64,000 nt of DNA from an uncultured Ectothiorhodospiraceae bacterium (GTDB taxonomy: Bacteria; Pseudomonadota; Gammaproteobacteria; CAMYNG01): assembly GCA_947259765.1 (NCBI GenBank), contig CAMYNG010000001.1:158219-222218 (forward strand), written 5' to 3'. Position 1 is the first letter of the stretch, and each line of letters starts with the position of its first letter. Both the position numbers and the translations under genes were made by a program. The notes beneath the pieces are model-generated. The model saw nothing but the letters and a program-made list of their open reading frames with translations. It was not told the origin of the DNA and made no database searches. This document shows positions 31,612-60,274 of this stretch, piece by piece.

Positions 31612-31655
31612 TCAAGAATGCACCCTCGCCACATGGAGACGCCAGGTTACCCCCT

Positions 31656-35146: not shown

Positions 35147-35165
35147 CTAATGCCAAGATCCACGT

Positions 35166-36293: not shown

Positions 36294-36335
36294 CTATCTT
36301 CAACACCCTGTTCAAGTTGTAAAGGCGGGAAATTA

Positions 36336-37069: not shown

Positions 37070-37657
37070 CTAGAATTCGCCTGCGGCGCCGCGATCCATA
37101 ATATCCCGAATGATTTTCTTCACCTTCAGCGCTTCGTTTTTCAGCTCAGGTGGCAAGGGCTCGCCGCCGTAAATCATCATGTCCATATTAAGGGAATACA
37201 ACCAAAGCTGGCCGCTTTTATCTTCAACTAGTGAGACCCGGCAGGGTAAATAGGCGGAAAACGCGTCGTCGTATTCAAGCATTTTTGCTGCCGTGAGCGC
37301 GTTACAAAACATGTAAATCTTTACGAATCGGTACGGATTTCCGGACATGGCTTCGACTTGCTTGTAAAGCGGTAGCTCACCAACATTTTTAATATTATGT
37401 TCGTTGGCAACCGAATGCATGGCTTCTTCGACATCATCGGCCGACAATCCCTCGTTTACCTTTATCTTCCAGACTGTTGCATCTGCAGCATTACCACTCT
37501 CCAGCAACCGTTGCCCCAATGCGCTGTAAACTGCCGCCGCGTTTTCGTCAAACAGACTCAGTCGGTTCAAAACTGACTCGTATCTCACAACCCCGACCAC
37601 CACCACGATCACGAATAACAAGCCAATTAGTGCAAAAAAATTTCTAACAAACGCCAT
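37070..37657 (-). CDS. Membrane-anchored DUF302-domain protein
   Basis: The protein has an N-terminal TM segment (FFALIGLLFVIVVVVGVV) and a DUF302-like core (KIYMFCNALTAAKMLEYD...YLPCRVSLVEDKSGQLWLY). Confidence 0.7.
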   Translation of the reverse strand: MAFVRNFFALIGLLFVIVVVVGVVRYESVLNRLSLFDENAAAVYSALGQRLLESGNAADATVWKIKVNEGLSADDVEEAMHSVANEHNIKNVGELPLYKQVEAMSGNPYRFVKIYMFCNALTAAKMLEYDDAFSAYLPCRVSLVEDKSGQLWLYSLNMDMMIYGGEPLPPELKNEALKVKKIIRDIMDRGAAGEF

Positions 37658-37774
37658 CTAAAGGTTCCTCCGTAAATCCCACGTTTCAACTTAGCCCGAA
37701 ACACACAACGTTGCGTATAAACACCAAAAAACCTGTCGAATTTACCACCTTTTGCCTACTTAGGTACACCCGAT

Positions 37775-38512
37775 TTAGCGTGATGGATCACCGAACGGCA
37801 CGCTAGAATCCCGAGCCGTGGGTGACTGAGGTACCGAATACCGGGGCGGCGGTGGCGGGTAGTAGTAACCGTGCGGATAGGCCCCGAATCCCGGTGCGGG
37901 ACGCGCTGAATACGGTGGGGGATAGGGTGTGTAGCGATTATACGGTACCACATTTCGGGGGTACTGATAAAAATATGGGATCTGACCCGGGCTTGGCGGC
38001 GCACTGTATCTCCCCCGGTCCTTCGGCATGGCCCGATTGGGCACTACCCCTGAACCGGACATGGCGGGCGGCCTCACCTGAGGTGAAACCGGTCGCCAGT
38101 TGGGCGCCGGTGGCGTAGAGGGGCCTACGCGAGGTACACCCTGACCGGCAGGTATTCCTGGACGTGCCCCGGTCGACACACCCGGCGGAACACCATACGC
38201 GTAGCCTGTAGGCCTCGGGCTATTCGCCGCGAGTTCTTGAGGTCCGTTTTCCACAGTGTCCGGTGAGTCGGCAAACCAGAGCAATGTACCAAGAGCGACA
38301 AAAATCAATGTCGGTACAAGCACAAACCGTGATTTCCATTTGGGTACGCTCGCCGGGTTCACATCGTATCGAGACCGAGCCGACCCGGCCACGCCCAATT
38401 CTTCAAGTTTCGCCATGAGTTCCGGCTTTCGTGAAGCCGTGTTGCCCGGTTCGGGCGTGTCCTTACTGACGTCTGAGTCCTTGCCTGATTCTGCCATGAT
38501 TGAGTCACCCAT
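37775..38512 (-). CDS. Single-pass membrane protein with Pro/Tyr/Gly-rich C-terminal domain
   Basis: The protein has a charged N-terminus, one TM segment (FVLVPTLIFVALGTLLWF) and then a ~160-aa low-complexity region (PYFYQYPRNVVPYNRYTPYPPPY...YYYPPPPPRY). It starts 28 nt downstream of the dynamin-like gene. Confidence 0.55.
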   Translation of the reverse strand: MGDSIMAESGKDSDVSKDTPEPGNTASRKPELMAKLEELGVAGSARSRYDVNPASVPKWKSRFVLVPTLIFVALGTLLWFADSPDTVENGPQELAANSPRPTGYAYGVPPGVSTGARPGIPAGQGVPRVGPSTPPAPNWRPVSPQVRPPAMSGSGVVPNRAMPKDRGRYSAPPSPGQIPYFYQYPRNVVPYNRYTPYPPPYSARPAPGFGAYPHGYYYPPPPPRYSVPQSPTARDSSVPFGDPSR

Positions 38513-38540
38513 GTTTTAAGTGAACTTTCTTCATTTAAAC

Positions 38541-40079
38541 CTAGACGAACGAACCTTGCTCTTCCTGATCACTCGCGGCCAAATGCGGTGAACTCTGTGC
38601 CGAGCGCTCGGCGGCGAAACCGCTTGTAATGCCATCCCCCGAAGGCTTTGTGTATTTATCGTTCAAGACCTGCACGTAGTTGTCTGCAGAATCAATGATT
38701 TTCTGAATACGCCGACGCGTACGCCGCCCCCACCCCACGGGTTCTGGGCGAAACAAACTGTGGCGTGGACGGGTATTTTTCAGAAATGCCTGGATTAAGG
38801 AGCGCCGGACCATGTCTGAGTCTGTCTCGCGTTCTATGCGTTGGACCACACCTTTCGCAGCATGTTTTCGCATGCCGAAGTGTGTCACGGCAAATAGGCC
38901 GAATAAAACCGAAACCGTGGCGATTCTTCCCCACAATCCCAGGCCGGAAGTCCACCATTCGGATACGTTCGCGAGTAGCTGTGCTGTGGGTCCTGCGTTT
39001 TGCCCAAATAAATAAATTGCCGCAACAATGATAGCTAAAAACGTTACGACCAGTGTATCTCGCCAACCCACTCCGCGTCGCCAGATCCCCAAAAATCGGA
39101 CTAATTCGGGAATTCGTGATTCTTCAATACTCTTGGCAGTCTTCTCCAATGCGCCAATGACCCGGTACACGCGTTCCACATGAACTTGCTGGATCCGTTG
39201 GTGTATGGCGTCGAGATCGGTGTCTCGTTTTGATTCATACCGAGTGCGTAGTGCCTCATCTTCGATAGGCACGGCTGCATCCGGATTGTAAATACAAAAG
39301 AACTCACCTGCCGTGAGCCCGCTTTTTGCCAACGCCCGTTGCCAGGCCGCAACGACGTCTTCAGGATTATCCTCGCGCGCCGTAGTATCAATCTGATTAA
39401 GGACGTAAATAAATTTATTCGAGTCATTTCGCTCTACCCGATTCGCAACCAGATGCTCCAACGTATCTTGCATCGCACCCGGCTCCGGATGACGCGCATC
39501 GAAGAACACCAAAACAAGATCAGACAGATCAATAATGTAATCCGTAATACGTAGCGTGGAGTTGCGTTGCTCATCCGCGTCAAAGCCGGGAGAGTCGATA
39601 ATAATACTGCCTTTAAGCTTTTCGCTCGGACATGTTTTCATTTGTAAGTATGAGTCGACTCTTCCGCCCTCTCCTGGAGAAACTTTTTCCAATTCGTCTG
39701 CCATTTGGTAAAACGGAAACCTGGGATCCGCATCCAAGGAAATCCCCGGTAACACCCGGTGCGTATCGTCGGAGGAAAAACAGACAACGGTAAATTTATC
39801 GTCGACCGCCTGGGTACCCGTTTCCTGCAATGGAAACTGCAGGTAGTGATTTATAAAAGTCGACTTGCCGGCGGAAAACGTGCCCAGAAACGATATCAAA
39901 GGCCACCAGGGGATTTGTGTTGCGTAAGACTGATTACGCTGTAACAGGCCGGTACGGTAAGCGACTTTGTCCAGCTCTCGAAAACTACGCACGGCGTCGA
40001 CCAATAACTCATTTTCTTCCTGTAGGTGTTGTTCGAGCTTTTTTAGACGCTCTTGAATCGGGTTTCTGTTTGCAAACAT
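38541..40079 (-). CDS. Dynamin-superfamily (EHD/BDLP-like) GTPase with C-terminal membrane hairpin
   Basis: The nucleotide-binding motifs are G1 GTFSAGKSTFINHYL, G3 DSPGF and a G4-like NQID. The middle region is helical. Two hydrophobic segments lie near residues 345-405. Confidence 0.72.
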   Translation of the reverse strand: MFANRNPIQERLKKLEQHLQEENELLVDAVRSFRELDKVAYRTGLLQRNQSYATQIPWWPLISFLGTFSAGKSTFINHYLQFPLQETGTQAVDDKFTVVCFSSDDTHRVLPGISLDADPRFPFYQMADELEKVSPGEGGRVDSYLQMKTCPSEKLKGSIIIDSPGFDADEQRNSTLRITDYIIDLSDLVLVFFDARHPEPGAMQDTLEHLVANRVERNDSNKFIYVLNQIDTTAREDNPEDVVAAWQRALAKSGLTAGEFFCIYNPDAAVPIEDEALRTRYESKRDTDLDAIHQRIQQVHVERVYRVIGALEKTAKSIEESRIPELVRFLGIWRRGVGWRDTLVVTFLAIIVAAIYLFGQNAGPTAQLLANVSEWWTSGLGLWGRIATVSVLFGLFAVTHFGMRKHAAKGVVQRIERETDSDMVRRSLIQAFLKNTRPRHSLFRPEPVGWGRRTRRRIQKIIDSADNYVQVLNDKYTKPSGDGITSGFAAERSAQSSPHLAASDQEEQGSFV

Positions 40080-40201
40080 GACTCTAATCCCACCTTGCTA
40101 ATGAGGTTACAATTTTTCCGGCACTCGCATGCGTCTATGTAAATATCATCGAATTTATTCTTTTTCCCGCTTACGATTACGCATAGTAAAAACTTTATGT
40201 G

Positions 40202-40729
40202 CTACCAGGGCATAAACGAGTTCATAAATGACATTGGACGGGACACACTATTGTTCATTATCGATATGTCGTAGCGCATTTGTGCCATGGAAACATTCAT
40301 TCCGCGCATATTCATCGCCATTTCATGCATGGTGGAGGACTGGTTATCCACCGTCTGGGTCATAATGACCATATTCTTTGCTACCGAATTCATATTCACG
40401 GCAACACTGTTCATGTCCTGGTTGATTGCATCCATCGTGTCCGCAACTCGACCAATATCTTGCGTGAGACTGTAAATGAGGAAAAAGCCATACGCAGCGA
40501 GTAAGACGAATGCAAACAAAGAGGGATACACAATAAGTTCCCAACGTCGTGCGCTCGCCGTAAACGCTCTTGAAAGCTGATCCAGACTCCGGCCCAGACT
40601 ATCGTCCGCCAGAACTGCGGCACGGCCTTTGTTTGCATCAAGCTCACTGCTGTCTGCGTCTTCCGAACCTGCGGGCGTATCATCCTTAACCGGTGTTTCT
40701 GCATCGGGCTGCTTTGAATTTTCTGTCAT
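40202..40729 (-). CDS. Single-pass membrane protein with Met/Asn-rich heptad-periodic C-terminal domain
   Basis: The protein has an acidic N-terminus, a TM segment (LIVYPSLFAFVLLAAYGFFLIYSL) and then DTMDAINQDMNSVAVNMNSVAKNMVIM...MHEMAMNMRGMNVSMAQM...FMNSFMPW. Confidence 0.6.
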   Translation of the reverse strand: MTENSKQPDAETPVKDDTPAGSEDADSSELDANKGRAAVLADDSLGRSLDQLSRAFTASARRWELIVYPSLFAFVLLAAYGFFLIYSLTQDIGRVADTMDAINQDMNSVAVNMNSVAKNMVIMTQTVDNQSSTMHEMAMNMRGMNVSMAQMRYDISIMNNSVSRPMSFMNSFMPW

Positions 40730-40813
40730 TACCGACTCCTGCTGATTTCAAAATTCAGTCTGAACAGCCATCGCTGAACAGACTGATACTGCTAAAAGCA
40801 ACCCAAGCACGAC

Positions 40814-41599
40814 TCACAGCAGTCCCGCCTGTGCCATTTTTCCGTTTAACTGTGATGCCTTCTCAGGATCAAGCCCTTGAATCACCATCAGTAGATAATT
40901 AAGCTGTGCCGTCTGTTTTTGCTCCAAAAGGCGGATCGCCGCTTCAAAAAAGGCGCCGCCAGCTTCTCGCCACTTGCCTTGTGTGTAGTAAACATTACCC
41001 AGTTCACCGAACGCGTCCGCGCTTTCGGGTTCCTGACGTGTGAGAGCCAGATAATGTCGCTCTGCCGATGAGAGATCACCCACGCCGTATGCCGTACGCG
41101 CCTTTTTCAACAACTGGTAGGCTTCGCTTTGTACGCGGTCACTGCTCGCTGTTTCAACACCTTGAGCGGTGTGGTCGGCCTGTGTAACGTCAGGATATTC
41201 GGCTTGAACCAGTGGCGTTTGCGCAACGTCTTGCTGAATCGGGCTTGGCTCTTGTAAAGATGGTGGTGTCGGCTCCGATGCAAGCTCCGACGCTGGAGCC
41301 TGCGTTACTGTGGATTCAACAATCTCACTTTGCAAAACCCTGTCGTCTTCGGGAATCACGGCTACAGATTCGCCCTGCTTTACGGGCTTTGATGCCGCGA
41401 TTGGCGAGGTCGTCGTCTCATCGCTTGAACTTTCAAAACTAAACTTGAGTAACTGTGGAAGCACATGCTCAATGCGTTCGTTTAGCTTGGCATTCCAGAC
41501 CTCGGGCAGCAAAAGTGTCCTATAGTAAAACCCGGCCAACAGTGCCACGAGCACTATAATAAGCACGCTATGACTCAAGATGTGTCTAATGATCTTCAT
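40814..41599 (-). CDS. Membrane-anchored TPR-repeat protein
   Basis: The protein has an N-terminal TM segment (VLIIVLVALLAGFYY), an acidic Ser/Pro/Glu linker and C-terminal TPR-like repeats (AERHYLALTRQEPESADAFGELGNVYYTQGKWREA). Confidence 0.65.
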   Translation of the reverse strand: MKIIRHILSHSVLIIVLVALLAGFYYRTLLLPEVWNAKLNERIEHVLPQLLKFSFESSSDETTTSPIAASKPVKQGESVAVIPEDDRVLQSEIVESTVTQAPASELASEPTPPSLQEPSPIQQDVAQTPLVQAEYPDVTQADHTAQGVETASSDRVQSEAYQLLKKARTAYGVGDLSSAERHYLALTRQEPESADAFGELGNVYYTQGKWREAGGAFFEAAIRLLEQKQTAQLNYLLMVIQGLDPEKASQLNGKMAQAGLL

Positions 41600-41662
41600 C
41601 CGTCAGCACCCCTGTTTGCAAAATAATCGTCGCCTGAAATCTTGTCGTCGCATGTCATCAGC

Positions 41663-42445
41663 TCATCTATTGAACTGCGAATTTTCTCTTGAGCCCGGAG
41701 GATTCGATGCACGCGTAAAATCATCGGGCACCACAAACAAGGTTGGTGATTGTTTACCGACCTTAATATTTCGGAGTTCGCGCACAAACCCGCCTTCAAA
41801 TTCCTCGCGAATCGCTATGCGAAGTTCCGGGTCGTACCATTGCACTGACTGGAGTTGCTTGCCTCCGGGTTGGGTTGCACGCATCTCCCATCTTTCGACG
41901 TCACGACCGTCTATTTTGCCTTTACCCGCCATGCTCATTTCAGCCACTGTTCCGTCCGGAAATAATTCACGTATGGGAAATTTTCGTTCCACTTCAATCC
42001 AATGCAGGCTGCGCAGATTTTGGCTGTCGACCGTGCGAACCATTTCCCATTTTTCCGCTTTTAGGCCCGCAATGATTTCAACATCCAACTTTCGACAACG
42101 GGAATTAACTCGATCTGCGCATGGACTGAAATTTTTTCTAGCCTCGCCGGTTGGTATTGTCTGCTGTGAAATTTTCTGCTCGACAAATTGCTTTACGTCC
42201 GGCCAATATAAAATGCGTTTTTGTTGTTGCGGATAAAAAATTTCCACAACAGTTCGACCGTTGATCACTGACTCAGTGCGCACGGCGTGTTTACTCACGT
42301 TCATCTGCGCATTCATTACCAGTCCTCCAGGTGAAATTTGCAGTGCATCTGCGGAAAACTCAGCAGCCACTCCTGTCGCGTTAACAACAGGAGCGCAAGC
42401 CAATAACACGCACGTAAATAAACTCGATTTCAATTTGGAGAACAT
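41663..42445 (-). CDS. Exported/lipo-protein of unknown function
   Basis: The 260-aa protein has a signal sequence (MFSKLKSSLFTCVLLACAPVVNA) and a beta-rich body. The track ORF runs on to 42964 only because an alternative frame of the neighbouring Gly-Tyr repeat gene is open. I trimmed it to the ATG at 42445. Confidence 0.6.
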   Translation of the reverse strand: MFSKLKSSLFTCVLLACAPVVNATGVAAEFSADALQISPGGLVMNAQMNVSKHAVRTESVINGRTVVEIFYPQQQKRILYWPDVKQFVEQKISQQTIPTGEARKNFSPCADRVNSRCRKLDVEIIAGLKAEKWEMVRTVDSQNLRSLHWIEVERKFPIRELFPDGTVAEMSMAGKGKIDGRDVERWEMRATQPGGKQLQSVQWYDPELRIAIREEFEGGFVRELRNIKVGKQSPTLFVVPDDFTRASNPPGSRENSQFNR

Positions 42446-42530
42446 TGATTTTATCTCCACAGAATCGTTGCGCCTGCTGATCGCGTAGCTTATCGGGGAT
42501 CGCGCACGTCCTTGTGCAAGTCCCCCCGGG

Positions 42531-43055
42531 TTATTTGTTGGCGCCAGCCGGAGGTTGCGCCGGCGGTTGCGCGGGCGGCGCCCAACCCTGACCGCCCCAG
42601 CCTGGACCATAACCTGGGCCATAACCCGGACCATAGCCACCGCCACCGTAACCAGGTCCATAACCGCCACCGCCGTAGCCGTAACCGCCATAGCCTGGGC
42701 CACGGCCGCCGTAGCCTGGGCCGTAGCCACCGTAGCCTGGACCATAGCCACCGTAGCCTGGACCATAGCCACCGTAACCTGGACCATAGCCACCGTAACC
42801 TGGACCATAGCCACCGTAACCTGGACCATAGCCGCCGTAGCCTGGGTGGCCGTAACCCCGTCCGTAGCCACTACCCCGACCGTAGCCGGAACCGGAGCCA
42901 CGCATACTGAAGTCCATGTCGCCCCAGCCGTCGCCCCAACCATTGCCGTAACCGTTATTGCCAAACGGTCCCCACCAGGCCTGGGCCGAAGTTAACGGCA
43001 TGGCGGTTGCGCCGACCAGCGCCGCGGCTGCCATTAGATGTTTTACACGTTTCAT
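42531..43055 (-). CDS. Secreted Gly/Tyr/Pro/Trp-rich repeat protein (sulfur-globule-protein-like composition)
   Basis: The signal peptide ends ...PLTSAQA/WW. The mature part is almost only G, Y, P, W and R, with six PGYGGYG heptads plus variants, and it ends in an (AQPP)n tail. Confidence 0.7.
   Translation of the reverse strand: MKRVKHLMAAAALVGATAMPLTSAQAWWGPFGNNGYGNGWGDGWGDMDFSMRGSGSGYGRGSGYGRGYGHPGYGGYGPGYGGYGPGYGGYGPGYGGYGPGYGGYGPGYGGYGPGYGGRGPGYGGYGYGGGGYGPGYGGGGYGPGYGPGYGPGWGGQGWAPPAQPPAQPPAGANK
42699..42845 (-). repeat. Tandem 21-nt coding repeat (PGYGGYG x6 plus PGYGGRG)
   Basis: The plus-strand unit ccaccgta(a/g)cctggaccatag is repeated head-to-tail. It is in frame within the 42531-43055 CDS. 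Confidence 0.85.
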
Positions 43056-43290
43056 GATAATTGCTCCTGAAATGATGTTAACAACGTTCCACTGCGGCAG
43101 ATGTAATACCTACCGCGCCACTCTCTCTTGGTTAAAACCTACAGTGTGCAAATGTAGAGAGTCCCATCTGCCCACCACCGGCAAAGTTCTAACGGGATAA
43201 CACGAACAACACCCGCAAAGCTTTACCCTCCCTTTAAGACGACACGCGTTAACTTGCAGCAAAATTTTTCTGTCAACTCGCGCCATCTTG

Positions 43291-43980
43291 TTACCAGGCT
43301 CCAAATGGCCAGTTCATCCCCGTCAGCCCCGACGGATAACCACCATAAGGTGCCCCATAAATCGGATAGCCTGGATACATACCCAATCCGGGTGTCACTC
43401 CCGGATAGCCCCATGCCGGCCCCGGCAACCCACCCCCGGCATACGGATTGCCCCATCCACCCAGCCCATATCCACCCGCTCCATACACATTGCCAGCGTA
43501 GGGATAGGCGGGATAGGAATAGGGATGTAAATAGCCTCCCGCCGCATAGCCGGGAGGAGTTGATGGAGAATAAGAAGCCGTGCCACGTTGTTCATAACAC
43601 GGCCGATAGTGCCGGTCATATGAGCGATAAGATCGCCGCGTCGAACGCGGCAGTTCACCCCACGGGCGCGACTCGCTCGGAATTTCAAACAGATGATCAC
43701 GCACAGGTGCGCTTCGTTCACGCTCGTATCGTGGTGGAATCTGACCGAACGAATCAACGTAATACGAACCGTCGACACGTGACGCACTTCGGCGTCGGCC
43801 GGCGGGAGTTGGTTCAGTTTCCACAACCGAAGACCAACGAGACGGCCAACGATCCGGTGAATAGGTCACGCCGTTCTGTTGGCCAAAGCTTTCCGCGTTA
43901 GCAGACAGCGCAGGACACAGCAGGCTCAGGAGAATCAGACCACGTGCCGGGGGTGCGTATACTGTTGAAAGTTTCATCAT
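43291..43980 (-). CDS. Secreted protein with Arg/Ser/Tyr-rich middle and Gly/Tyr/Pro-rich C-terminus
   Basis: The signal peptide reads MMKLSTVYAPPARGLILLSLLCPALSANA/E. The C-terminus reads YPYAGNVYGAGGYGLGGWGNPYAGGGLPGPAWGYPG...YPIYGAPYGGYPSG. I chose the start ATG at 43980, preceded by GGTGAGG. Confidence 0.6.
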   Translation of the reverse strand: MMKLSTVYAPPARGLILLSLLCPALSANAESFGQQNGVTYSPDRWPSRWSSVVETEPTPAGRRRSASRVDGSYYVDSFGQIPPRYERERSAPVRDHLFEIPSESRPWGELPRSTRRSYRSYDRHYRPCYEQRGTASYSPSTPPGYAAGGYLHPYSYPAYPYAGNVYGAGGYGLGGWGNPYAGGGLPGPAWGYPGVTPGLGMYPGYPIYGAPYGGYPSGLTGMNWPFGAW

Positions 43981-44031
43981 GACCTCACCCTTAAAACCTT
44001 TGTGCATGATTCGCGTGACAAAATCTCGATC

Positions 44032-45498
44032 CTATCGCTGGGGCACGTTCGCCGGAGGACGACCTGTGTTCCAACCAGGAGGTGGTGCCCACTGTCCGTA
44101 GGGATATCCATAACCATACTGTGGCGGATATGGCCGCTGGGCCGGCGCAGGACCTGTCCCGGTTTGGTCAGGCATCTGCGGTTGCATCGGTGCGTTGAAT
44201 CGCGGTGGTCCCGACTTTTGCGTCCAATTGGGCTGCACGGGAGGTGCAGATCGATGCGCGGGAGCTTGTGACCACTCCGGCTGCGCCGGTGGTTGATATT
44301 GAGGTGGCGGTCGCTGTGCCCAATCCGGTCTTACCGGAGGCGCGGTTCGTTGGCCCGGTGCTTGTGATCTATCCGGGCGCGCCGGTGGTTGATATTGAGG
44401 CGGCGGTCGCTGTGCCCAGTCCGGTCTTACCGGAGGAGCAGTTCGCTGGCCCGGTGCTTGTGACCACTCAGGACGCGCCGGCGGTTGATATTGAGGCGGC
44501 GGTCGCTGTGCCCAGTCCGGTCTTCCCGGAGGCGCGGTTCGTTGGCCCGGTGCTTGCGACCACTCAGAACGCGCCGGTGGTTGGTACTGAGGCATCGGCC
44601 GCTGCGTCCACTCCGGTCGTGTCGGCGGTGCGTTTTGTTGCACGGGAGTTTGTGATCCGTCTGGCCGAGTCGATGGTTGAGTGTGTGGCGTCGGCCGCTG
44701 TGCCCACTCCGGTCGTGCGGGAGGTGCAGCTCGTTGTGTCGCTGCTTGCGATCCGTCGGAACGTTTTGGCGGTTGAGTATTTGGCAGTGGCCTTTGCGCC
44801 CAGTCCGGTCGAGTTGGCGGCGCGCCTCGATGCATGGGTGCTTGTGTATCGCCGGAACGAGCCGGTGGTCGATAATGCGGCCGCGGTTGTTGCGCCGGTT
44901 GCTGCCATTCGGGACGTGTGGGTACCTGATAACGCGGCATCGGTCGCTGTGCCCAGTCAGATCGTGGCGGCGGCGTGGTTCGTTGTGTCGGTGCTTGTGA
45001 TCCGCCGGGATGCGTCGGAGGTTGACTGTACGGCATCGGCGGTACCGGCCTCTGCGCCCAGTCCGGTCGAGCGGCAGGCGCGGTTCGCTGTGCTGGAACC
45101 CGTGATCTGTCGGAGCGAGCTGGCGGCTGAGTGTGCGGCATCGGCTGTGATGTCCATCCGGGTCGAACAGCTGGTTCGGCAGTTTGTGCCCTTGGCGTAC
45201 CGGTTTGAGCGGGCGCCCGCTGTGGCCAAACTGGAGCTTGTTGTGCGGAACGTTGCTGTTGTGACCAAGCAGGCATATTGGAGTAACGACCCGTCTGCGG
45301 CACGGCTCGCGGTTGACTCGGATAACCATCTTTCGACTGTGACCGATAAGGTCCGGTGGGCGGAGGCGGCATAACTTCGGAAGCGCCGTCTTGCGCAGTT
45401 TCCGCCGCAAAAGCAGTAAACGTAAAAGTGCAGGACATCAGCAGCAAGTACGCCGTAGCCAATTTGAAGTTCGAACTCTTTCTGCGCGATACTTTCAT
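44032..45498 (-). CDS. Secreted Pro/Gln/Arg/Trp-rich protein built from ~10 tandem 32-aa repeats
   Basis: The signal peptide reads MKVSRRKSSNFKLATAYLLLMSCTFTFTAFA/AE. The repeat unit is RPDWAQRPPPQYQPPARPEWSQAPGQRTAPPV. The C-terminus is Tyr/Gly-rich (PQYGYGYPYGQW). Confidence 0.65.
   Translation of the reverse strand: MKVSRRKSSNFKLATAYLLLMSCTFTFTAFAAETAQDGASEVMPPPPTGPYRSQSKDGYPSQPRAVPQTGRYSNMPAWSQQQRSAQQAPVWPQRAPAQTGTPRAQTAEPAVRPGWTSQPMPHTQPPARSDRSRVPAQRTAPAARPDWAQRPVPPMPYSQPPTHPGGSQAPTQRTTPPPRSDWAQRPMPRYQVPTRPEWQQPAQQPRPHYRPPARSGDTQAPMHRGAPPTRPDWAQRPLPNTQPPKRSDGSQAATQRAAPPARPEWAQRPTPHTQPSTRPDGSQTPVQQNAPPTRPEWTQRPMPQYQPPARSEWSQAPGQRTAPPGRPDWAQRPPPQYQPPARPEWSQAPGQRTAPPVRPDWAQRPPPQYQPPARPDRSQAPGQRTAPPVRPDWAQRPPPQYQPPAQPEWSQAPAHRSAPPVQPNWTQKSGPPRFNAPMQPQMPDQTGTGPAPAQRPYPPQYGYGYPYGQWAPPPGWNTGRPPANVPQR
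44197..45165 (-). repeat. Tandem 96-nt coding repeat array (about 10 units, the three at 44236-44523 nearly identical)
   Basis: RP(D/E)W(A/T)QRP recurs at protein residues 155, 190, 241, 273, 305, 337, 369 and 401, with a 32-residue period over the last seven. Each unit is itself two 16-aa half-units. Confidence 0.8.
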
Positions 45499-45555
45499 TT
45501 GCTTTGTCCTCATCATTAATTCCGTCACCAATTTTTCAGCTCGACAATCACATCA

Positions 45556-48500
45556 TCAACCTGGTTCATCCTTTGGAGAAGTGACACGTCGCTTAGCACG
45601 ACTCGGTACTCGCTTTCCTTTCACAGTTTTTTTCACCGTTGCTTTCTTCGCTGTCTTTTTTATATTAGTTGTTTTGCTGGTCGTACTGCCGGCAGGTTTT
45701 TTTGCTTTCCGCGTAGTCTTCCGGGTGCGGGAGGAAGAAGTCGCGGCTGCAGATTTTTTACCTACCGATTTTTTCTTTGCAGTCGATCGGGACCGAGCTT
45801 GTGTTTTGGCAGTTGATGGTTTTGAAGCTGTCTCAGCAACAGGCTTGACCGCGGCGGGCGCGGAAGATGGCGCCGAGGGTGACCCTCCGCCGCCGGGCGT
45901 ACCACCGTCTGGCGTTCCATCAGGAGTTGAGCCAGAGTCATTCCCGGATCGGCGAAAACGCTGCAGGAGGCTTGCGATCGCCATGCGCAACATCATGTAA
46001 ATCGCACGCAGGATATAAAACGCCCACGTCACCACACCGACGACTTTACCCCACAACACCAATGCCAATGGCATCTTGTTCGCCGCCGTAATCGGCTCAT
46101 CCGCAGCGGTTGCAATCGCTGCGTCACCCGGAACATCGGAAAAATAGAATTGCTTGCGCGCGCTAATGCAACCCAAGGGAATAACTACAAGCGTTAGGAT
46201 TGTCGCAACACCCGTACCAAATAGCAGACTTACCGCCATCCCCTGAAAAATAGGATCGGTAATGATCGCTGCAGCACCGGCCATCAGTGTGAGCGCAGTT
46301 ATAAAGATAGGTCGCATGCGAATTTGTCCAGCAGCAATCACGGCCTCGACAATATCGTTGTTTTGCTCCGCCTCCTTTTTGACGAATTCCACCAGCAGAA
46401 TCGAGTTGCGCACAATGATGCCCGCCAGCGCGATAAACCCAATCATTGACGTTGCAGTGAACTCCGCGCCGACCAGCCAGTGACCGGGAATTATGCCAAT
46501 TAGGGTAAGCGGAATCGGCGCCATAATCAGGCCGCCCAGCGTAAAGTTCTTGAACTCCCAAACAATGAGTCCGTAAATCAGAACCAACGCTGCCATAAAC
46601 GCGAGACCCATATCACGAAACGTTTCATAGGTAACCGTCCATTCGCCCGTCCATTCAATACCGGAACGAATATCGCTTTTCGGCGGACCAATTAAGCCAA
46701 GTGGCATCCCGCTAATGGTTACACCGTCCGGCGTGGTATATTTTGCAAGCAGGTCTTCGACATTGAACATGCCGTAAATTGGCGCACCGAGTTCGCCTTC
46801 CATTTCGCCCGTGACATACTCAATTGGGCGCAGGTCCTTATGAAATATCACCGAATCTTCCGGGCGGGGCACAAACCGGCCTAACTCGGCCAGCGGGATG
46901 GTGCCACCACTTTTCGACATAATGGGTAGATTCTTAAGGCGTTGGATCTGGGCGCGGACGGGTAACGGAACCTGAATAACGATATAGGTAGGCTCGCGTA
47001 CCACCCGCCGTTTAATGTCACCAAGCTTAAAGCCGCCCATGGACATCGCAAGATTTTGATTTATCGTATCTACCGAAACGCCATAACGAACTGCCTTTTC
47101 GATGTCTACCTCAAACTGCCAAAATTCAAACTGAGCAGAGAGATAATTATCAACATCGACAACGCCGTCCGCTTCTTCAAACATGGCAGTCATATCACGG
47201 GCGACTTGACGACGCGTATCGGCATCCGGCCCATAAACCTCCGCAACAACGGTTTGTAAAACCGGTGGACCAGGGGGCATCTCTACTACCTGTATGCGTA
47301 CGCCTGTGGCCTTTACGTCTGGACGCGCATCAATGAACTCGTTAAGTAAGTGGCGTGCCGCGACGGCAATCTCATGACTGCCTCGCTCACGCTCGTTTTT
47401 GTCCAGCAACATGACCTGAATATCAGATTGCCAGGGTTGAGATCGAAGATAGTAATGGCGAACCATTCCGTTAAAGTTAAAGGGTGACGACGTACCCACG
47501 TAGGATTGTAATGCCGTAACCTCCGGGATCCCCCGCAATTTCTCGGCAAGTGAATGCGTCACGTTTGCAGTGACGGGAAGCGCCGTTCCTTCCGGCATGT
47601 TTATTACAACATTGAATTCCGGTTTGTTATCAAAAGGCAACATTTTGACCGTGACGATGTTGAAATAAAACATCGCACAGGCCAGGAACGTCGCGCCAAT
47701 AAGACCAAACATGAAAGTCAAACCTAGTACACGATTATTGCATAGCGGATTCATGCAAGGACGATAGACTCGACCGATCCATGCCCTGATTCTCTCCTCG
47801 CGAACCTCTGCTTTTTTCAACGCCTCTAGTTGCGGTCGAACCCGCATCGCGAACCATGGTGCAAACACAAAAGCGGCAATAAGTGAGAAAAACATCGCCG
47901 CCGAGCCCAGCACCGGTATGGGACGCATATAAGGCCCCATCAGGCCGCTGACGAACCCCATAGGCAGCAAGGCTGCAATGATCGTTAGCGTAGCGAGTAT
48001 GGTTGGATTACCTACTTCACGAACCGCATCGATAGCGATCGCCAGTGTCGTTTTTCCAGCTGCCAACCAGCGTCTGAAAATGTTTTCCACGACGACGGTT
48101 GCATCGTCAACGAGTATTCCTATTGAGAAAACAAGCGCAAAGAGACTGACCCGATCGATGGTGTAGTCAATTATCCAGGCCGACCAAATAGTGACCAGGA
48201 TTACGATTGGAATAATTGTAATTACGACGGAAGCGGCACGTAGCCCCAGGCCGATAAGGCAAAGAATACTTACGGCAATCGCTGCTTCAAACAGTGCAGT
48301 CAGGAGCTCATTGACTTTATCATTCGCTGTCTTGCCGTAATCACGCGTAATTGCGATCTCTACATTCCCGGGAATTAGGTTTCCCTTTAAGGACTCAAGT
48401 TTTTCAATTACAGCATTAGCGACGGTAACTCCGTTAGTTCCAATTTTTTTTGCGATGGCGACTGTAACCGCCGGGGCGCCGTTAACGTCCTGTGCATCCG

Positions 48501-49407
48501 CTGCTTGTGCCGAGCCACTGTAGAATCCCGCTACCTGGCCGGTTTCTTCCGGCGCCTGAAATACCTGCGCGACATCTCGCACATACACCGGTGCGCCGTT
48601 ATAGACACCCACTACAAGACGCGAGATTTCCTGTGCACTACGTAGAAACGCCCCTGTGTATACCGTAAACGCCTTGTCACTTCCCTCTACAAATCCCGCC
48701 GATTGTTCCGCGTTGGCCGTTTGAATAGTTTGTGCAACCTGCGCCACGCTAAGACCAAACCCACTCAGGCGTTCAGGATAGACCTCGACGCGTATTTGTT
48801 CGGCCCGGCCACCTACAACAAAACCGTTACCCGTATTCGGCACCTGTTCCAGGCGCTGCAAAACATCAAACGCGAGTGTGCGAAGATTTCCATCATCAAC
48901 ATCCTTTGACCAGAGTGTCACAGTGACAATGGGGACATCATCTATTCCCACCGGCTTGACCAATGGCATGGAGACACCGGGTGGAATCATGTCAAGATTG
49001 GACTGCAACTTGTCATGTACCTTGACAATGGATTCGCCCAGGTTTTCGCCGACCAGGAAGCGGACGGTAACGATGTTTGCTCCCCGCTTCGTAGCCGAGT
49101 AGACATGCCGCACACCCGGAATCTCGCTCATGATCCTTTCAAGTGGATCCGTAACCAGGCTGGTTACCTGCTCTGCTGACGCCCCTGGGTATTGCACGTA
49201 GATATCCACCATGGGAACAGAGATTTTGGGATCTTCCTGCCGCGGCGTAAAAAACAGCCCCAGTAAACCGATGGCCAGGAATGCCATCATCAGTAGAGGA
49301 GTTACCGGTGAATTTATAAACTGACGTGCCGTACTACCGGCGATACCCAGCTCTGGATTTAGTTCCGGCTCTGGTTGTTTATCAGTTTGTTGTACTTTTT
49401 CCGTCAC
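45556..49407 (-). CDS. RND (AcrB/AcrD/AcrF-type) efflux permease with ~190-aa C-terminal extension ending in a Lys/Ala/Ser/Thr-rich basic tail
   Basis: The 1283-aa ORF has a 12-TM RND layout with two large periplasmic loops. After the last canonical TM segment it adds an extra hydrophobic segment (MPLALVLWGKVVGVVTWAFYIL) and then a 130-aa low-complexity tail. Confidence 0.9.
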   Translation of the reverse strand: MTEKVQQTDKQPEPELNPELGIAGSTARQFINSPVTPLLMMAFLAIGLLGLFFTPRQEDPKISVPMVDIYVQYPGASAEQVTSLVTDPLERIMSEIPGVRHVYSATKRGANIVTVRFLVGENLGESIVKVHDKLQSNLDMIPPGVSMPLVKPVGIDDVPIVTVTLWSKDVDDGNLRTLAFDVLQRLEQVPNTGNGFVVGGRAEQIRVEVYPERLSGFGLSVAQVAQTIQTANAEQSAGFVEGSDKAFTVYTGAFLRSAQEISRLVVGVYNGAPVYVRDVAQVFQAPEETGQVAGFYSGSAQAADAQDVNGAPAVTVAIAKKIGTNGVTVANAVIEKLESLKGNLIPGNVEIAITRDYGKTANDKVNELLTALFEAAIAVSILCLIGLGLRAASVVITIIPIVILVTIWSAWIIDYTIDRVSLFALVFSIGILVDDATVVVENIFRRWLAAGKTTLAIAIDAVREVGNPTILATLTIIAALLPMGFVSGLMGPYMRPIPVLGSAAMFFSLIAAFVFAPWFAMRVRPQLEALKKAEVREERIRAWIGRVYRPCMNPLCNNRVLGLTFMFGLIGATFLACAMFYFNIVTVKMLPFDNKPEFNVVINMPEGTALPVTANVTHSLAEKLRGIPEVTALQSYVGTSSPFNFNGMVRHYYLRSQPWQSDIQVMLLDKNERERGSHEIAVAARHLLNEFIDARPDVKATGVRIQVVEMPPGPPVLQTVVAEVYGPDADTRRQVARDMTAMFEEADGVVDVDNYLSAQFEFWQFEVDIEKAVRYGVSVDTINQNLAMSMGGFKLGDIKRRVVREPTYIVIQVPLPVRAQIQRLKNLPIMSKSGGTIPLAELGRFVPRPEDSVIFHKDLRPIEYVTGEMEGELGAPIYGMFNVEDLLAKYTTPDGVTISGMPLGLIGPPKSDIRSGIEWTGEWTVTYETFRDMGLAFMAALVLIYGLIVWEFKNFTLGGLIMAPIPLTLIGIIPGHWLVGAEFTATSMIGFIALAGIIVRNSILLVEFVKKEAEQNNDIVEAVIAAGQIRMRPIFITALTLMAGAAAIITDPIFQGMAVSLLFGTGVATILTLVVIPLGCISARKQFYFSDVPGDAAIATAADEPITAANKMPLALVLWGKVVGVVTWAFYILRAIYMMLRMAIASLLQRFRRSGNDSGSTPDGTPDGGTPGGGGSPSAPSSAPAAVKPVAETASKPSTAKTQARSRSTAKKKSVGKKSAAATSSSRTRKTTRKAKKPAGSTTSKTTNIKKTAKKATVKKTVKGKRVPSRAKRRVTSPKDEPG

Positions 49408-49458
49408 GGAAGAATTCTCAGTACGATTCTCTTTTCCAACTGCCGAGGTATCAGTAAA

Positions 49459-50676
49459 TTATTGTGCTGTGTCGTTAGAATCAGATTTCCACGACGACGA
49501 CATTCCCGCCGGTGGCGCTGCAACAACTTGCTCACCTGACCGTATACCGGAAAGTACCGTGACATGGTTGTCACCCACAGACTCACCAAGTCGAATTAAA
49601 CGAAGCTCGGTTTTGTTGTTCTGTCCAAGAACAAAAACCGCCGGCAGACTTCCGCGCCAGAGAATGGCCGAGGCAGGGATCATCGGTAGCGACTGAATCG
49701 GTGCGTCAGCATCGGGCACCATAACTTCAGCATACATACCTGGCGCGGCTGGTACGCCAATGGGTAAATCGAATTTAACAGTCACGGTATGGCGTGCGGT
49801 ATCCGCGACCGGAAAGATCTGTGCGACACGGGCGTTTACGTGCCGGTCGCCAACGTCCAGAACTGCAGGTACCACCATGTCTCGACGTAGTGAGCGCATA
49901 AGTCGTGCAGGAACTTCGATTCGAAGTTGCAGATCGCGCGTATCCGCGAAATGCAAAAGTGGTTGACCGGGTTGAACAATGTCACCCTGCTCCACCAACT
50001 TGCTGACAATTACTCCTGTGAATGGTGCGACTGACCTGCTGTCGCGTAATTTCGCTTCAACTTCCTGCAAACGCGAATAGGCACCCCAGTGCTGCCCTTG
50101 TGCCTTGCCTAATCGGGAACGATAGGAGTAAAGATCCGCCTGTCTTTCAAGCCAGGGGTTACCGTAACCCATGCCGCTGCCCACGTTTCGTGTAAAAAAT
50201 TGATCAAACAACGACGGCAAGCCCATGCCCGGCATTTTTCCTATATCGCGCGACTGCGGTGCCATAAACTCTTTTCCGTATTGCACCTGAGCATTACTCA
50301 TGTCATAGGCGGAATTTCCAATTTCCGCCAAGGCCTGCTGTCGGCGCGCACGCAACTCGTCATCATCTACCGCAACTAGAAGCTCTCCGGCTTCGAACCA
50401 ATCACCCTCTATCCCGGCCAAATAGCGAATCTGTCCGGGTAACTGCGCAGACAGAGTGACCGTACGGTACGGCACAACCGAACCGCCGAGAATCACCGCA
50501 GCGCCGGTATTGGTGTTTGTTACGGTAAATAAACCAGGCTGATTCGCGGCCTGTGCTGTGCTCGTTGCTAGCGGATAGGAACTTTCTCCAAAACCGCTCG
50601 CACCAACTTCCGCAGAAATTACCAAACACAGCAAACAAGCAGCATATCGAAAAACTTCTGGAGTAAATTTTTTCAT
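49459..50676 (-). CDS. RND efflux periplasmic adaptor (membrane fusion protein, HlyD family)
   Basis: The protein has a signal peptide, a lipoyl/hairpin/beta-barrel layout (VAVDDDELRARRQQA..., VIVSKLVEQGDIVQPGQPLL...) and lies directly upstream of the RND gene. Confidence 0.85.
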   Translation of the reverse strand: MKKFTPEVFRYAACLLCLVISAEVGASGFGESSYPLATSTAQAANQPGLFTVTNTNTGAAVILGGSVVPYRTVTLSAQLPGQIRYLAGIEGDWFEAGELLVAVDDDELRARRQQALAEIGNSAYDMSNAQVQYGKEFMAPQSRDIGKMPGMGLPSLFDQFFTRNVGSGMGYGNPWLERQADLYSYRSRLGKAQGQHWGAYSRLQEVEAKLRDSRSVAPFTGVIVSKLVEQGDIVQPGQPLLHFADTRDLQLRIEVPARLMRSLRRDMVVPAVLDVGDRHVNARVAQIFPVADTARHTVTVKFDLPIGVPAAPGMYAEVMVPDADAPIQSLPMIPASAILWRGSLPAVFVLGQNNKTELRLIRLGESVGDNHVTVLSGIRSGEQVVAAPPAGMSSSWKSDSNDTAQ

Positions 50677-50775
50677 GATTCAACTCAATGCTTTCTTTGA
50701 GAGAACCCGCAATGGGATTTTGTTTTTAATTTGATAAAACCGGTAAAAGCTGTCGATGCCAGTCGGATCACATGC

Positions 50776-51171
50776 TTACGCACGCCCCATCACGGCGAAA
50801 CTTTTTATAAACGGTGCAGCCATACGCGGATCCTTGATCATGGCCGCGTAATCACCCTTGTTGAATTTGAGTTTTCGAGAGGTATAGGCCATACCCAGGC
50901 CCATCATGCCAGGTGGTTTGTCTATCCATTTCACCCAGTTATTCGTTGATGCACGCAAATCCCAGTTCAGTTCCTGCCCACTAAACGCTTCAGCAGAAAC
51001 GGCCTTGCCATTCTCAACCGTTAGCACCACTTTGGGGTCGGCGTCATCTTCAAGCCCGTAGCCGATTGCCGACGAGAAACCGATTTTTGCTAGTTCATCC
51101 GCCAATCCCGGCTCATTGTTCCAGGCGTCGACATAATTCTGCATCCACTCTTTGGAAAATAGTTCTGACAT
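50776..51171 (-). CDS. SCP2 (sterol-carrier-protein-2)-like small lipid-binding protein
   Basis: The 131-aa protein has an SCP2-like pattern (...WDLRASTNNWVKWI...MAYTSRKLKFNGDYAAMIK... approx.). I trimmed the start to the ATG at 51171 (MSELFSKEW). Confidence 0.65.
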   Translation of the reverse strand: MSELFSKEWMQNYVDAWNNEPGLADELAKIGFSSAIGYGLEDDADPKVVLTVENGKAVSAEAFSGQELNWDLRASTNNWVKWIDKPPGMMGLGMAYTSRKLKFNKGDYAAMIKDPRMAAPFIKSFAVMGRA

Positions 51172-51217
51172 ACTGCACCCCCGTGTCGCATTTTCATTGT
51201 TGTCGTTCAGTTGAAGT

Positions 51218-51233
51218 AGCAAATGACATGCCA
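51218..51233 (-). promoter_or_regulatory. Sigma-54 (-24/-12) type promoter for the SCP2-adaptor-RND transcription unit
   Basis: The minus strand reads TGGCAT-GTCAT-TTGCT, which has the exact GG-N10-GC spacing of TGGCAC-N5-TTGCW. It lies 47-62 nt upstream of the SCP2 start. A GAFTGA enhancer-binding protein gene is divergent. Confidence 0.6.
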
Positions 51234-51355
51234 TTTTTTAACCACTTGTTTTACAAAGAAATATTTCTATTGCCAAGTGTGATGTTGCATCTGGGAAATA
51301 TCATCTCCTGCCATCAACCCACTGATTTAATTAGAGATAAACACAAATTTAAGAG

Positions 51356-51390
51356 TGCAACGTGTTGCGCAACCTGAGCGGAACTGCAAC
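51356..51390. promoter_or_regulatory. Candidate upstream activator sites (TGCAAC half-sites and GTTGCGCAAC palindrome)
   Basis: TGCAAC occurs at 51356-51361 and 51385-51390, and the perfect 10-bp palindrome GTTGCGCAAC at 51364-51373. These lie about 125-155 bp upstream of the -24 element. Confidence 0.35.
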
Positions 51391-51432
51391 ACTTGTATAA
51401 ATTGCATGAACGAAGTACGGGAAGGTGGAGTA

Positions 51433-52779
51433 ATGGTTAGAATTTCAAGTCTGTTCCCGATGCTGGAGGCGGTGGTTTCCAATATCGCCGAGGGTGTGCT
51501 CATTGTTGATAAAAAGGGCAACGTTCAATACCAGAACCCCTCCGCCGCAGAGCTTCTTGGATTACGTCCCGGTCAGCCGCTATCCAAGTTGCACGATGTC
51601 AGCCAATTCAATTTACAACGCGCGATACTGAAGGCGGCCATCGACGCCGGTGAGGTTGATGCCGCGGGTCAGCCCAGTGGTGCGTTTGTTCAGTTTGAAC
51701 AAAAAATTCATCGAGAAAACGGTGATCTGTATCTGGAATTTTACACTGGGTTTGTCAATTGTCAGGAAACCCACAGCCAGGCCCGTCTCATTCTGATTCG
51801 GGACCGAACCCAGCAACGACGACTGGAGGCGGTTTATCAAAACAAGTACCCGGATCTTGAGAGTAGCGATCCCCACATGTTGGAAGTGGTCGACCGGATA
51901 CGACAAATTGCACCCACCAACGCGTTCGTACTTTTGCAGGGGGAATCCGGTACGGGTAAAACATTATTGGGAAGAATGATTCACCGCTTGAGTTCAAGAG
52001 GCAGCCACGCGTTCGTTGAGCTTAACTGCGCGGCAATTCCGGAAACCCTAATCGAGTCTGAATTATTTGGCCACGTTAAAGGTGCTTTTACCGGCGCCAC
52101 ACAAGATCGTCTAGGACGATTTCAGGCGGCCCATCAGGGCACTTTGTTCCTCGACGAAATTAGTGAGATCCCTTTACACCTGCAAGCCAAACTTTTGCGC
52201 GCAATTCAAGAGCAGGAGTTTGAGATGGTGGGTTCGAATAAAACTGAAAAAGTTGATGTACGCATCATCGCGGCTTCAAATCGCAACTTGCGCGATTTGG
52301 TCGACGCCGGTGAGTTCAGGGCTGATCTCTTTTACAGGTTGGCTGTTATTCCCATAACAATTCCGGCTTTGCGGGAACGCCCCGGTGATATCCCATTGCT
52401 CACAAATTACTTCATTGCTCGGCTCGCCGCACGCGGTTATCCCGACGATATCGAATGTACCCACGAGGCGATGCGAATGATGATGAATTACCCGTGGCCC
52501 GGAAACGTACGTGAGCTTGAAAATGCCATTGAGCACGGAATTATTTGTGCTGAACAGAACCGAATTTTGCCGGACTCTCTGCCGCAGGATATTTTCGCCT
52601 TTAGTCATAAAAGTGAGACGCCTACGCTGGATGTGAATTTTGATGTGCATCAGGAACGTGAGCACGAGATCTTACTGGCACTGCAACGCGCCAATGGCAG
52701 CAAGGCGATGGCAGCGCGTATTCTGGGGATAGATCGTTCTACGTTGTGGCGACGTATGCAGCGGCTTGGAATCCAATGA
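51433..52779 (+). CDS. Sigma-54-dependent transcriptional activator (PAS - AAA+ - Fis-type HTH)
   Basis: The ORF has a PAS-like N-terminus, Walker [17 protein letters not shown] (KGAFTGATQ), ESELFGH and a C-terminal HTH ([24 protein letters not shown]). I chose the start ATG at 51433, preceded by GGTGGAG. Confidence 0.88.
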
Positions 52780-60240: not shown

Positions 60241-60274
60241 GTTGCGTTAGCTGTATCCTTCACATCTTTACTGT

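Follow-up and report, generated by a model that had tools for sequence, protein, structure and literature searches.

A conserved gene cluster encoding a sulfur-globule-family protein, an RND pump and a dynamin-like GTPase: a probable ParA-less envelope module of sulfur-oxidising Proteobacteria

Sulfur globules are a central storage intermediate of many sulfur oxidisers, including the symbionts of lucinid clams and tubeworms, giant sulfur bacteria and magnetotactic cocci. Beyond a few coat proteins, we know of nothing that has been established on how a globule is nucleated, enclosed, loaded, positioned or emptied. Folds of the SCP2 and UbiJ type bind lipids and isoprenoids, the cargo of LolA-like proteins is lipidated or hydrophobic, and membrane repair or fission is the work of bacterial dynamins such as IniA and DynA. 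ATPases of the ParA/MinD type position cargo, as McdAB do for carboxysomes, and histone-H1-like tails are found in granule proteins (PhaM/PhaF, AlgP). Genes of the sulfur globule protein (SGP) type are reported from almost all globule-forming Proteobacteria; in Allochromatium vinosum each sgp gene forms a transcription unit of its own and the genes lie scattered, and one of them, sgpD, to whose product mCherry fusions have been made, adjoins an exporter that is not regulated by sulfide (PMC10386293). Here we describe a cluster of twelve genes in a 64-kb stretch of DNA from an uncultured Ectothiorhodospiraceae bacterium (contig CAMYNG010000001.1, positions 158,219 to 222,218; hereafter the window, in whose own numbering coordinates are given). 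The locus is best explained as a ParA-less member of a conserved, apparently undescribed envelope module of sulfur-oxidising Proteobacteria, and we regard it as an evenly balanced proposition that this module builds, loads and anchors the envelope of periplasmic sulfur globules. Literature searches pairing sulfur globules with dynamin, RND, SCP2, ParA, DUF302 and efflux, which covered papers readable without a subscription, returned no description of the cluster. Each gene belongs in or near a known family, whereas the assembly and the ParA-linked tail of its RND pump apparently lack a described counterpart.

The twelve open reading frames (ORFs) follow one another on the minus strand from 51171 down to 37070, with intergenic gaps of ~24-235 nt. 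We refer to them in this order as g1 to g12. They encode an SCP2-fold protein (g1), an RND adaptor (g2) and permease (g3), three exported low-complexity proteins (g4-g6), a DUF4412-family protein (g7), a TPR protein (g8), a Met/Asn-rich protein (g9), a dynamin-like GTPase (g10), a Pro/Tyr-rich protein (g11) and a DUF302 protein (g12). An initial annotation, made from the DNA letters alone, had described this same-strand run, and all of its ORFs were present at the coordinates given there. Pfam and NCBIfam models verified its calls of the membrane fusion protein (MFP), RND, TPR, dynamin and DUF302 domains. Likewise, composition and hydropathy bore out the low-complexity compositions, membrane anchors, dynamin hairpin and basic RND tail that it had reported.

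To place the cluster among its relatives, we scanned with an alignment of three RND proteins, taking one genome per species. This returned 80 loci out of at least 583 stretches with relatives, in which ORFs were called and then searched with the window proteins. Gene order was conserved in ~35 loci from different species, with a divergent sigma-54 activator in some. The recurring order is SCP2-MFP-RND, three exported low-complexity proteins, DUF4412, (ParA), TPR, Met/Asn protein, (DUF302) and dynamin, where brackets mark variable members. Carriers belong to the Thioalkalispiraceae, Woeseiaceae, Granulosicoccaceae, Thiogranum and Thiotrichaceae, and include a Competibacteraceae metagenome-assembled genome (MAG) and many unclassified Gammaproteobacteria; Magnetococcales carry a shortened cluster. 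Those carriers that have names oxidise sulfur, and storage of sulfur is known for many of them (Sedimenticola, Ca. Thiodiazotropha, the Lamellibrachia symbiont, Thioalkalispiraceae, Thiogranum, Thiomargarita, Parabeggiatoa and Magnetococcus being the carriers concerned). In the reciprocal test, six of six sampled homologues of the dynamin (from Sedimenticola hydrogenitrophicus, Ca. T. endolucinida, the Lamellibrachia endosymbiont, SG8_47 and two MAGs) were located in or beside the cluster, their neighbours being the 131-aa protein, MFP, long RND, small exported proteins, DUF4412, ParA-like ATPase, TPR and DUF302 proteins. The comparison that the initial annotation had proposed as a check thus upheld its view of the genes as one system.

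Among 45 loci with at least 8 kb of sequence 3' of the RND gene, the downstream genes were present in 27 and absent from 18, the latter including all Chromatiaceae loci of this set. The RND subfamily thus extends beyond the cluster. These 18 loci with the RND alone, together with the tendency of low-complexity DNA to yield overlapping ORFs in several frames, could be taken to mean that an ordinary RND efflux operon merely stands beside unrelated hypothetical genes, the low-complexity ORFs being non-functional or mis-called. The synteny already largely refutes this explanation, since order, strand and spacing are kept across classes and all six sampled dynamin homologues lie in the cluster. Moreover, the exported low-complexity families keep their signal peptides, motifs and termini, and the ParA gene co-varies with a motif in the RND tail, as described below. 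We consider a chance neighbourhood scarcely credible.

The component that connects the cluster to sulfur globules is g6 (42531..43055), a predicted Sec-exported, Gly/Tyr-rich protein of the SgpA/B family (G 40%, Y 14%). It combines a Sec signal peptide (MKRVKHLMAAAALVGATAMPLTSAQA/WWGP) with the regularly spaced Gly/aromatic repeats expected of an SGP, here a 7-aa unit repeated 7.4 times and encoded by 21-nt repeats. Note that signal peptides were judged throughout by inspection and hydropathy, without a signal-peptide predictor. Homologues of g6 in a large protein collection often carry the Pfam domain PF17228 ("Sulphur globule protein"), and one has been so named by JGI. In an alignment of 32 family members (g6, 24 cluster orthologues and 7 database homologues), 23 matched PF17228 with a best E-value of 6.4e-16; several reached 31-40 bits, compared to a gathering cut-off of 26.7, over positions 1-88 of 93. 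Against a profile of the other members g6 scored 88.4 bits, and 200 shuffled sequences that preserved its composition and signal peptide scored at most 38 bits. What g6 has in common with the family is its signal peptide, a mature protein that starts with AWWGP, and a GDxxGDxDFSM...GRGYG core. Because its orthologues match the SGP model and g6 itself scores so highly against the family profile, g6 is, by homology, a member of the SgpA/B family. In nearly all copies of the cluster from Gammaproteobacteria, a gene of this family stands at this position. What the initial annotation had offered as an analogy to sulfur globule proteins is thus a real homology.

The two genes preceding g6 also encode predicted Sec-exported low-complexity proteins, and both positions hold conserved families. 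The product of g4 (44032..45531; probable start ATG 45498) is a Pro/Gln-rich repeat protein (P 23%, Q 13%) with 96-nt repeats (x4.9), and a P/Q-rich exported protein is found at its position in relatives. Tandem Repeats Finder (TRF) detected the DNA-level repeats under g4 as well as under g6. The product of g5 (43291..44007) is rich in Pro, Gly, Tyr and Trp (G 15%, P 13%, Y 11%) and contains a YSPDRWPSRW motif, an RPWG motif and a C-terminal Trp. RPWG is common to members of the g5 family (orthologues e.g. L005:4673-5266 and L013:12811-13413), and Trp is the last residue in 20 of 21 aligned members, the other one ending in Trp-Arg. The form YSPDxWPxRW is shared within one g5 clade, and g9 likewise has a Trp end (...MPW). 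The repeat DNA at 42500-45400 also contains long overlapping ORFs in other frames or on the opposite strand (e.g. 44205-45374 and 42555-42995, both on the plus strand), which are almost certainly low-complexity artefacts.

The low-complexity genes are preceded by those of a transporter. The adaptor g2 (49459..50676) matched HlyD_3, HlyD_D23 and TIGR01730 (140 bits, cut-off 94.9), with secondary matches to CzcB/CusB-type models. The permease g3 (45556..49407; 1283 aa) matched ACR_tran over its full length (residues 29-1078, 5e-146) and contains an invariant VDDA motif in the fourth transmembrane segment (TM4), with the Asp-Asp relay at D434-D435. A full-length RND with this relay and an adjoining MFP corresponds to a pump of the hydrophobe/amphiphile efflux (HAE) type. 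The closest solved relatives are TriC, MexK and MdtB, CusA being more distant; multidrug-type models scored 433 bits, compared to 282 for CusA/CzcA models, and the PDB E-values were 1e-64 and 1e-42, respectively. No outer-membrane factor (OMF) gene of the OEP/TolC/OprM type was found in the cluster, the window ORFs scanned (among them those flanking the cluster) or the related clusters sampled, a statement that applies to these regions; the absence of such a gene had been noted in the initial annotation. We also considered whether the pump corresponds to the exporter beside A. vinosum sgpD (Alvin_2516). No such identity could be shown. Alvin_2516 is reported to be unresponsive to sulfide, and the Chromatiaceae loci recovered contain the RND alone or with an MFP. 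Five Chromatiaceae MAG loci (L040, L042, L046, L048 and L052) contain a stand-alone, tail-bearing RND of the same subfamily, with neither MFP nor any other cluster gene. Beside these RND genes, a short divergent gene encodes a ~64-118-aa membrane protein (M..D.LTIAG...), and K+/H+-antiporter-like and nif-like genes are nearby.

The pump differs from other RND permeases at its C-terminus. The extension of g3 (45559..46137) comprises 193 residues with a net charge of +29, namely a hydrophobic segment (residues ~1112-1148) and then a basic tail rich in Lys, Ala, Thr, Ser and Pro. Both parts are conserved after TM12 in the cluster-type RNDs (L001-L073), where the Lys/Ala/Ser/Thr/Pro-rich tail carries a near-invariant RRGIRLK motif close to the C-terminus. 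In most relatives the cluster also contains a gene for a ParA-like ATPase. Motif and ParA gene occurred together in 28 loci, were both absent from 24 and were discordant in 3 (28/2/1/24; Fisher p = 3e-12), and the association persisted when only cluster loci were considered (p = 2e-5). In the window, the tail ends in ...SRAKRRVTSPKDEPG, in which the motif is degenerate, and no ParA homologue was found anywhere in the 64 kb. In a neighbour-joining tree of the RND cores, the state with neither ParA nor motif appeared in at least three separate lineages, one of them the window, whose RND is nested among relatives that have both. This suggests that the window genome lost both elements and represents a derived, ParA-less variant. 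The co-variation suggests a new kind of ParA cargo, with the RND tail as the probable partner of ParA, and the tail would therefore be cytoplasmic.

Two further components point to a hydrophobic cargo. The 131-aa product of g1 (50776..51171) is a putative cytoplasmic carrier of hydrophobic ligands. A longer ORF from 51234 is an artefact, as the homologues are all 131 aa long and start with MSELF or MAELF. Homologues are numerous (n=2138) and have a mean column identity of 67-68%. No Pfam or NCBIfam family, including the SCP2 models, matched g1, and a PDB profile search with the g1 family was empty. An AlphaFold model built with 40 homologues, in contrast, reached a predicted local distance difference test (pLDDT) score of 93.5, and Foldseek matched it to the Thermus SCP2 protein 2cx7 (TM-score 0.77, E 2e-6), and also to 1wfr, UbiJ-SCP2 and human, yeast and insect SCP2. 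The earlier description of g1 as SCP2-like therefore holds at the level of the predicted fold but not in sequence models. The other component, g7 (41663..42403), had been described as an exported unknown. Its export is predicted here as well, but it has relatives: 28 of 34 orthologues matched DUF4412 (PF14371; best 1.4e-12), and a few matched LolA_like and MucB_RseB weakly. The protein itself, which contains two invariant Cys residues, matched no DUF4412 or LolA-like model, and a PDB profile search with the g7 family found no relative by sequence. The transitive evidence through its orthologues thus suggests a DUF4412-like, weakly LolA/RseB-like protein.

The product of g10 (38541..40079) is a dynamin/EHD-like GTPase of 512 aa with a predicted transmembrane hairpin at residues 337-398. 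It matched Dynamin_N (1.5e-12; 48 bits, cut-off 27), and the G1, G3 and G4 motifs are invariant (P-loop GxxxxGKS, G66-S73; DSPG, 162-165; NQID, of the NQxD form, 228-231). The AlphaFold2 model (pLDDT 79.9) consists of a GTPase domain and a long helical stalk (helices 275-476). The best Foldseek matches were EHD4, EHD2, Campylobacter DLP1/2, IniA and mitofusin (E 3e-11 to 1e-8), and further structural matches, including dynamin, extended to E 1e-6; TM-scores were low (0.3-0.43), the domain arrangement differing. Judged by its GTPase motifs and by the stalk and fold of the model, g10 is predicted to belong to the dynamin superfamily. More than 5000 homologues share ~55-62% identity, and those with names belong to Sedimenticola, Ca. 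Thiodiazotropha and further symbionts that oxidise sulfur.

Four genes encode proteins with predicted membrane anchors. The TPR protein g8 (40814..41599; TPR_16 38.6 bits, cut-off 32.7) is anchored through residues 7-25 and recurs in synteny in 21 of the 45 loci whose flank is long enough. The protein g9 (40202..40729), single-pass by hydropathy, has a Met/Asn-rich C-terminal domain and gave only a sub-threshold match to DUF948; orthologues were found in 29 loci. The product of g11 (37775..38512) is a single-pass Pro/Tyr-rich protein (P 19%, hydropathy), and a ~200-aa gene stands at its position in L088. The N-terminally anchored DUF302 protein g12 (37070..37657; 1e-10) keeps a syntenic position in Sedimenticola, Thiodiazotropha, the symbiont of Lamellibrachia and a large number of MAGs, and a PDB sequence search with g12 alone found nothing. 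A second DUF302 ORF (264 aa) is located 15 kb from the cluster at 20891-21685 (minus strand), overlapping the 3' end of a TsaB-like gene.

The Met-rich g9, with 10% Met in its exported part, and the DUF302 protein g12, whose family we take to be that of the copper protein CopG, raise the question whether the cluster serves periplasmic homeostasis of copper or another metal, with a Cus-like RND/MFP pair, g9 as a Met-rich binder and g12 as a CopG-like protein. The secondary matches of the adaptor to CzcB/CusB-type models would fit such a role. The pump itself does not: its TM4 motif is of the HAE type, with the Asp-Asp relay, and both the model scores and the PDB E-values given above favour multidrug pumps over CusA/CzcA. 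In addition, no Cys cluster motif was seen in the g12 sequence, and the SCP2, DUF4412 and SGP components point to a hydrophobic rather than an ionic cargo. We rejected copper or metal efflux as very unlikely.

Expression of the cluster in the window appears to be under sigma-54 control. The sequence TGGCATGTCATTTGCT (51218..51233, minus strand) is an exact match to the -24/-12 consensus TGGCAY-N5-TTGCW, 47 nt 5' of the g1 ATG at 51171, and is the only exact match in the window (0.26 expected by chance). A divergent gene (51355..52779, plus strand), whose true start is probably an internal ATG, encodes an activator with PAS, sigma-54 AAA+ and Fis-type helix-turn-helix domains (Pfam PAS, Sigma54_activat 2e-68, AAA_lid_14 and HTH_8). 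The pairing claimed in the initial annotation is thus corroborated, with a -24 GG/-12 GC element at the right spacing and an adjoining enhancer-binding protein, as in sigma-54-dependent operons. Activator orthologues diverge from the cluster in 21 loci. Of 38 loci examined, 13 have a -24/-12 element 5' of the orthologue of the 131-aa gene, and in at least 11 of the 13 a divergent activator was detected. Because Sedimenticola-type clusters have neither element nor activator, sigma-54 control appears to be a clade-specific layer. Scans for internal terminators, sigma-70 promoters and further sigma-54 sites inside the cluster did not rise above shuffled controls. GTTGC(A/G) motifs are repeated at 51355-51400, between the promoter and the probable true start of the activator, and could be activator binding sites; a search of this region found no inverted-repeat site.

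On its other side the cluster abuts an FHA/kinase/PilT island (28768-37004), which encodes an FHA-GAF-HD protein (HD-GYP-like), a DUF6812 protein, a HEAT-repeat Ser/Thr kinase, two PilT-like ATPases and an FHA protein. The initial annotation had suggested that island and cluster form one functional block of 22 kb. We rejected the island as part of the system, since it has no counterparts beside the cluster elsewhere: no homologues adjoin the cluster in other loci, except for one kinase match in L071. Elsewhere in the window, two adjoining AMP-binding enzymes are encoded at 57343-62113 (minus strand), one fused to PP-binding and acyltransferase domains in an Aas-like lipid-recycling architecture, and a similar gene sits 3' of the cluster in L087. 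A t44 RNA (Rfam RF00127, 76.5 bits) at 12736-12824 (minus strand) overlaps the 5' end of the ORF 11761-12750.

How might these components work together? The initial annotation had read the locus as a kit for an extracytoplasmic proteinaceous layer or inclusion. Apart from the joint block with the neighbouring island, a kit for such an inclusion is the best-supported reading, because the cluster is a conserved unit and the SGP homology is real, and the inclusion that it builds and services would most likely be the sulfur globule. In such a scheme, the PAS-containing activator would turn on the operon from the -24/-12 promoter, both of which can be read in the sequence. The products of g4, g5 and g6 would form an extracytoplasmic coat or matrix. 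Hydrophobic cargo would pass from the cytoplasmic carrier g1 through the RND g3 and its adaptor g2 to the periplasmic g7, a line that would end in the periplasm because the cluster has no OMF gene. Candidate cargoes are zero-valent sulfur, organic polysulfanes or an amphiphile coating them. The inner-membrane-anchored g8, g9, g11 and g12, with predicted periplasmic domains, would tether the inclusion to the membrane, and the membrane-inserted g10, acting from the cytoplasmic face, may shape or pinch the cytoplasmic membrane around the growing globule. In most relatives, ParA may act on the RRGIRLK motif with which the histone-like tail of the pump ends, and would probably space the complexes along the nucleoid.

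Several observations weigh against assigning this scheme to sulfur globules. The Chromatiaceae loci recovered (among them those of Thiocystis, Thiorhodococcus, Lamprobacter, Thiocapsa and Halochromatium) hold the RND with or without the MFP and lack the cluster; since these are textbook globule formers, the cluster cannot be universally required for globules. Conversely, some carriers are not known as sulfur storers (Woeseiaceae, Granulosicoccaceae and the Competibacteraceae MAG). The window ORFs scanned included no dsr, sox or sqr gene. Homology within SGP, a low-complexity family, is no proof of function, and g6 itself did not match the Pfam SGP model even at E<=10, which is probably due to filtering or to the composition of its long GYGPGYG repeats. 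With regard to the transporter, RND pumps export, which leaves the mobilisation of stored sulfur into the cytoplasm unexplained, and the topology of the RND tail is ambiguous because the extra hydrophobic segment precedes it.

The same components could be read as a general module for trafficking of envelope lipids or other hydrophobes and for membrane remodelling, without specificity for sulfur. In that case, the cargo of the SCP2-RND/MFP-DUF4412 line would be a lipid, a quinone or an isoprenoid-like compound destined for the periplasm or the outer membrane. Remodelling or repair of the inner membrane would fall to the dynamin and the anchored proteins, and the Gly/Pro-rich proteins would make up a matrix in the periplasm. 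Such roles agree with the ligands of SCP2/UbiJ-like folds, with the lipidated or hydrophobic cargo of LolA-like proteins and with the repair and fission functions of dynamins of the IniA and DynA type, and the distribution just described, in lineages not known for globules but missing from Chromatiaceae loci, is in its favour. However, three dedicated exported low-complexity proteins are hard to account for by lipid traffic alone, an SGP-family gene recurs at one position in nearly all gammaproteobacterial copies, and every named carrier is a sulfur oxidiser. We therefore judge a purely lipid-directed module to be somewhat unlikely.

Returning to the sulfur-globule envelope, a more specific version can be formulated, which we put forward tentatively, as possible rather than likely. 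The cluster would be a dedicated machine that makes and positions the sulfur globule as a periplasmic organelle. An RND/MFP funnel without an OMF, docked on the Sgp coat, would load or condition hydrophobic sulfur delivered by the SCP2-fold and DUF4412 (possibly LolA-like) carriers, the dynamin/EHD-like GTPase would sculpt a pocket of the inner membrane, and in most lineages ParA would space the assembly from the cytoplasmic side through the RRGIRLK motif of the tail. If this is true, the pump would be the first transporter to be positioned by ParA, this subfamily of bacterial dynamins would gain its first cellular role, and the making of globules would become accessible to genetics. By linking an Sgp-family coat with a transporter, lipid-type carriers, a dynamin and ParA, the conserved block offers testable candidates for each step in the life of a globule. 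Whatever the cargo, the co-variation of ParA with the RND tail stands, and the ~500-aa hairpin-anchored dynamin defines a large uncharacterised subfamily of more than 5000 sequences.

In comparison with described systems, g6 and its orthologues resemble SgpA/SgpB (PF17228) of A. vinosum and other bacteria in being Gly/Tyr-rich and predicted to be Sec-exported and in having the GDxxGDxDFSM...GRGYG core. In contrast to SgpA/B, g6 is longer and more repetitive and itself falls outside the Pfam model. The gene arrangement differs as well: the scattered sgp genes of A. vinosum have their counterpart here in an sgp-type gene within a cluster of 10-12 genes that includes a pump, a dynamin and usually ParA.

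The pump shares with AcrAB-TolC, TriABC, MexJK and MdtABC a 12-TM RND with an Asp-Asp relay and an adjoining MFP, although its similarity to any solved pump is only ~1e-64. Unlike these efflux systems, it has no OMF gene beside it, is embedded among genes for structural proteins, a GTPase and an ATPase, and has the extra hydrophobic segment and a basic tail of ~130-200 residues or more, which ends in RRGIRLK in relatives. The small ParA of these relatives, with its deviant Walker A motif KGGSGKST, co-varies with a basic motif on a putative cargo protein with a Lys/Ala/Pro-rich tail, much as in ParA/MinD-type positioning. Here, however, the putative cargo is an inner-membrane RND pump serving a periplasmic structure, and not a cytoplasmic body. 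The window lacks both ParA and RRGIRLK, and the likeness applies to the 28 related loci that have both.

The GTPase agrees with Nostoc BDLP, Campylobacter DLP1/2, IniA, DynA and the EHD ATPases in its Dynamin_N domain with G1, G3 and G4 motifs and in the long helical stalk predicted for it. It differs in its length of only 512 aa and in a true transmembrane hairpin with a C-terminal helical region in place of a paddle, and it belongs to a distinct subfamily (~60% identity) that, among the homologues sampled, is restricted to the cluster. Finally, the cluster has no homology to the magnetosome, gas-vesicle and carboxysome islands, and its presumed compartment is periplasmic. Nevertheless, by way of analogy, it resembles them in co-encoding structural, transport, membrane-shaping and positioning factors as a conserved block.

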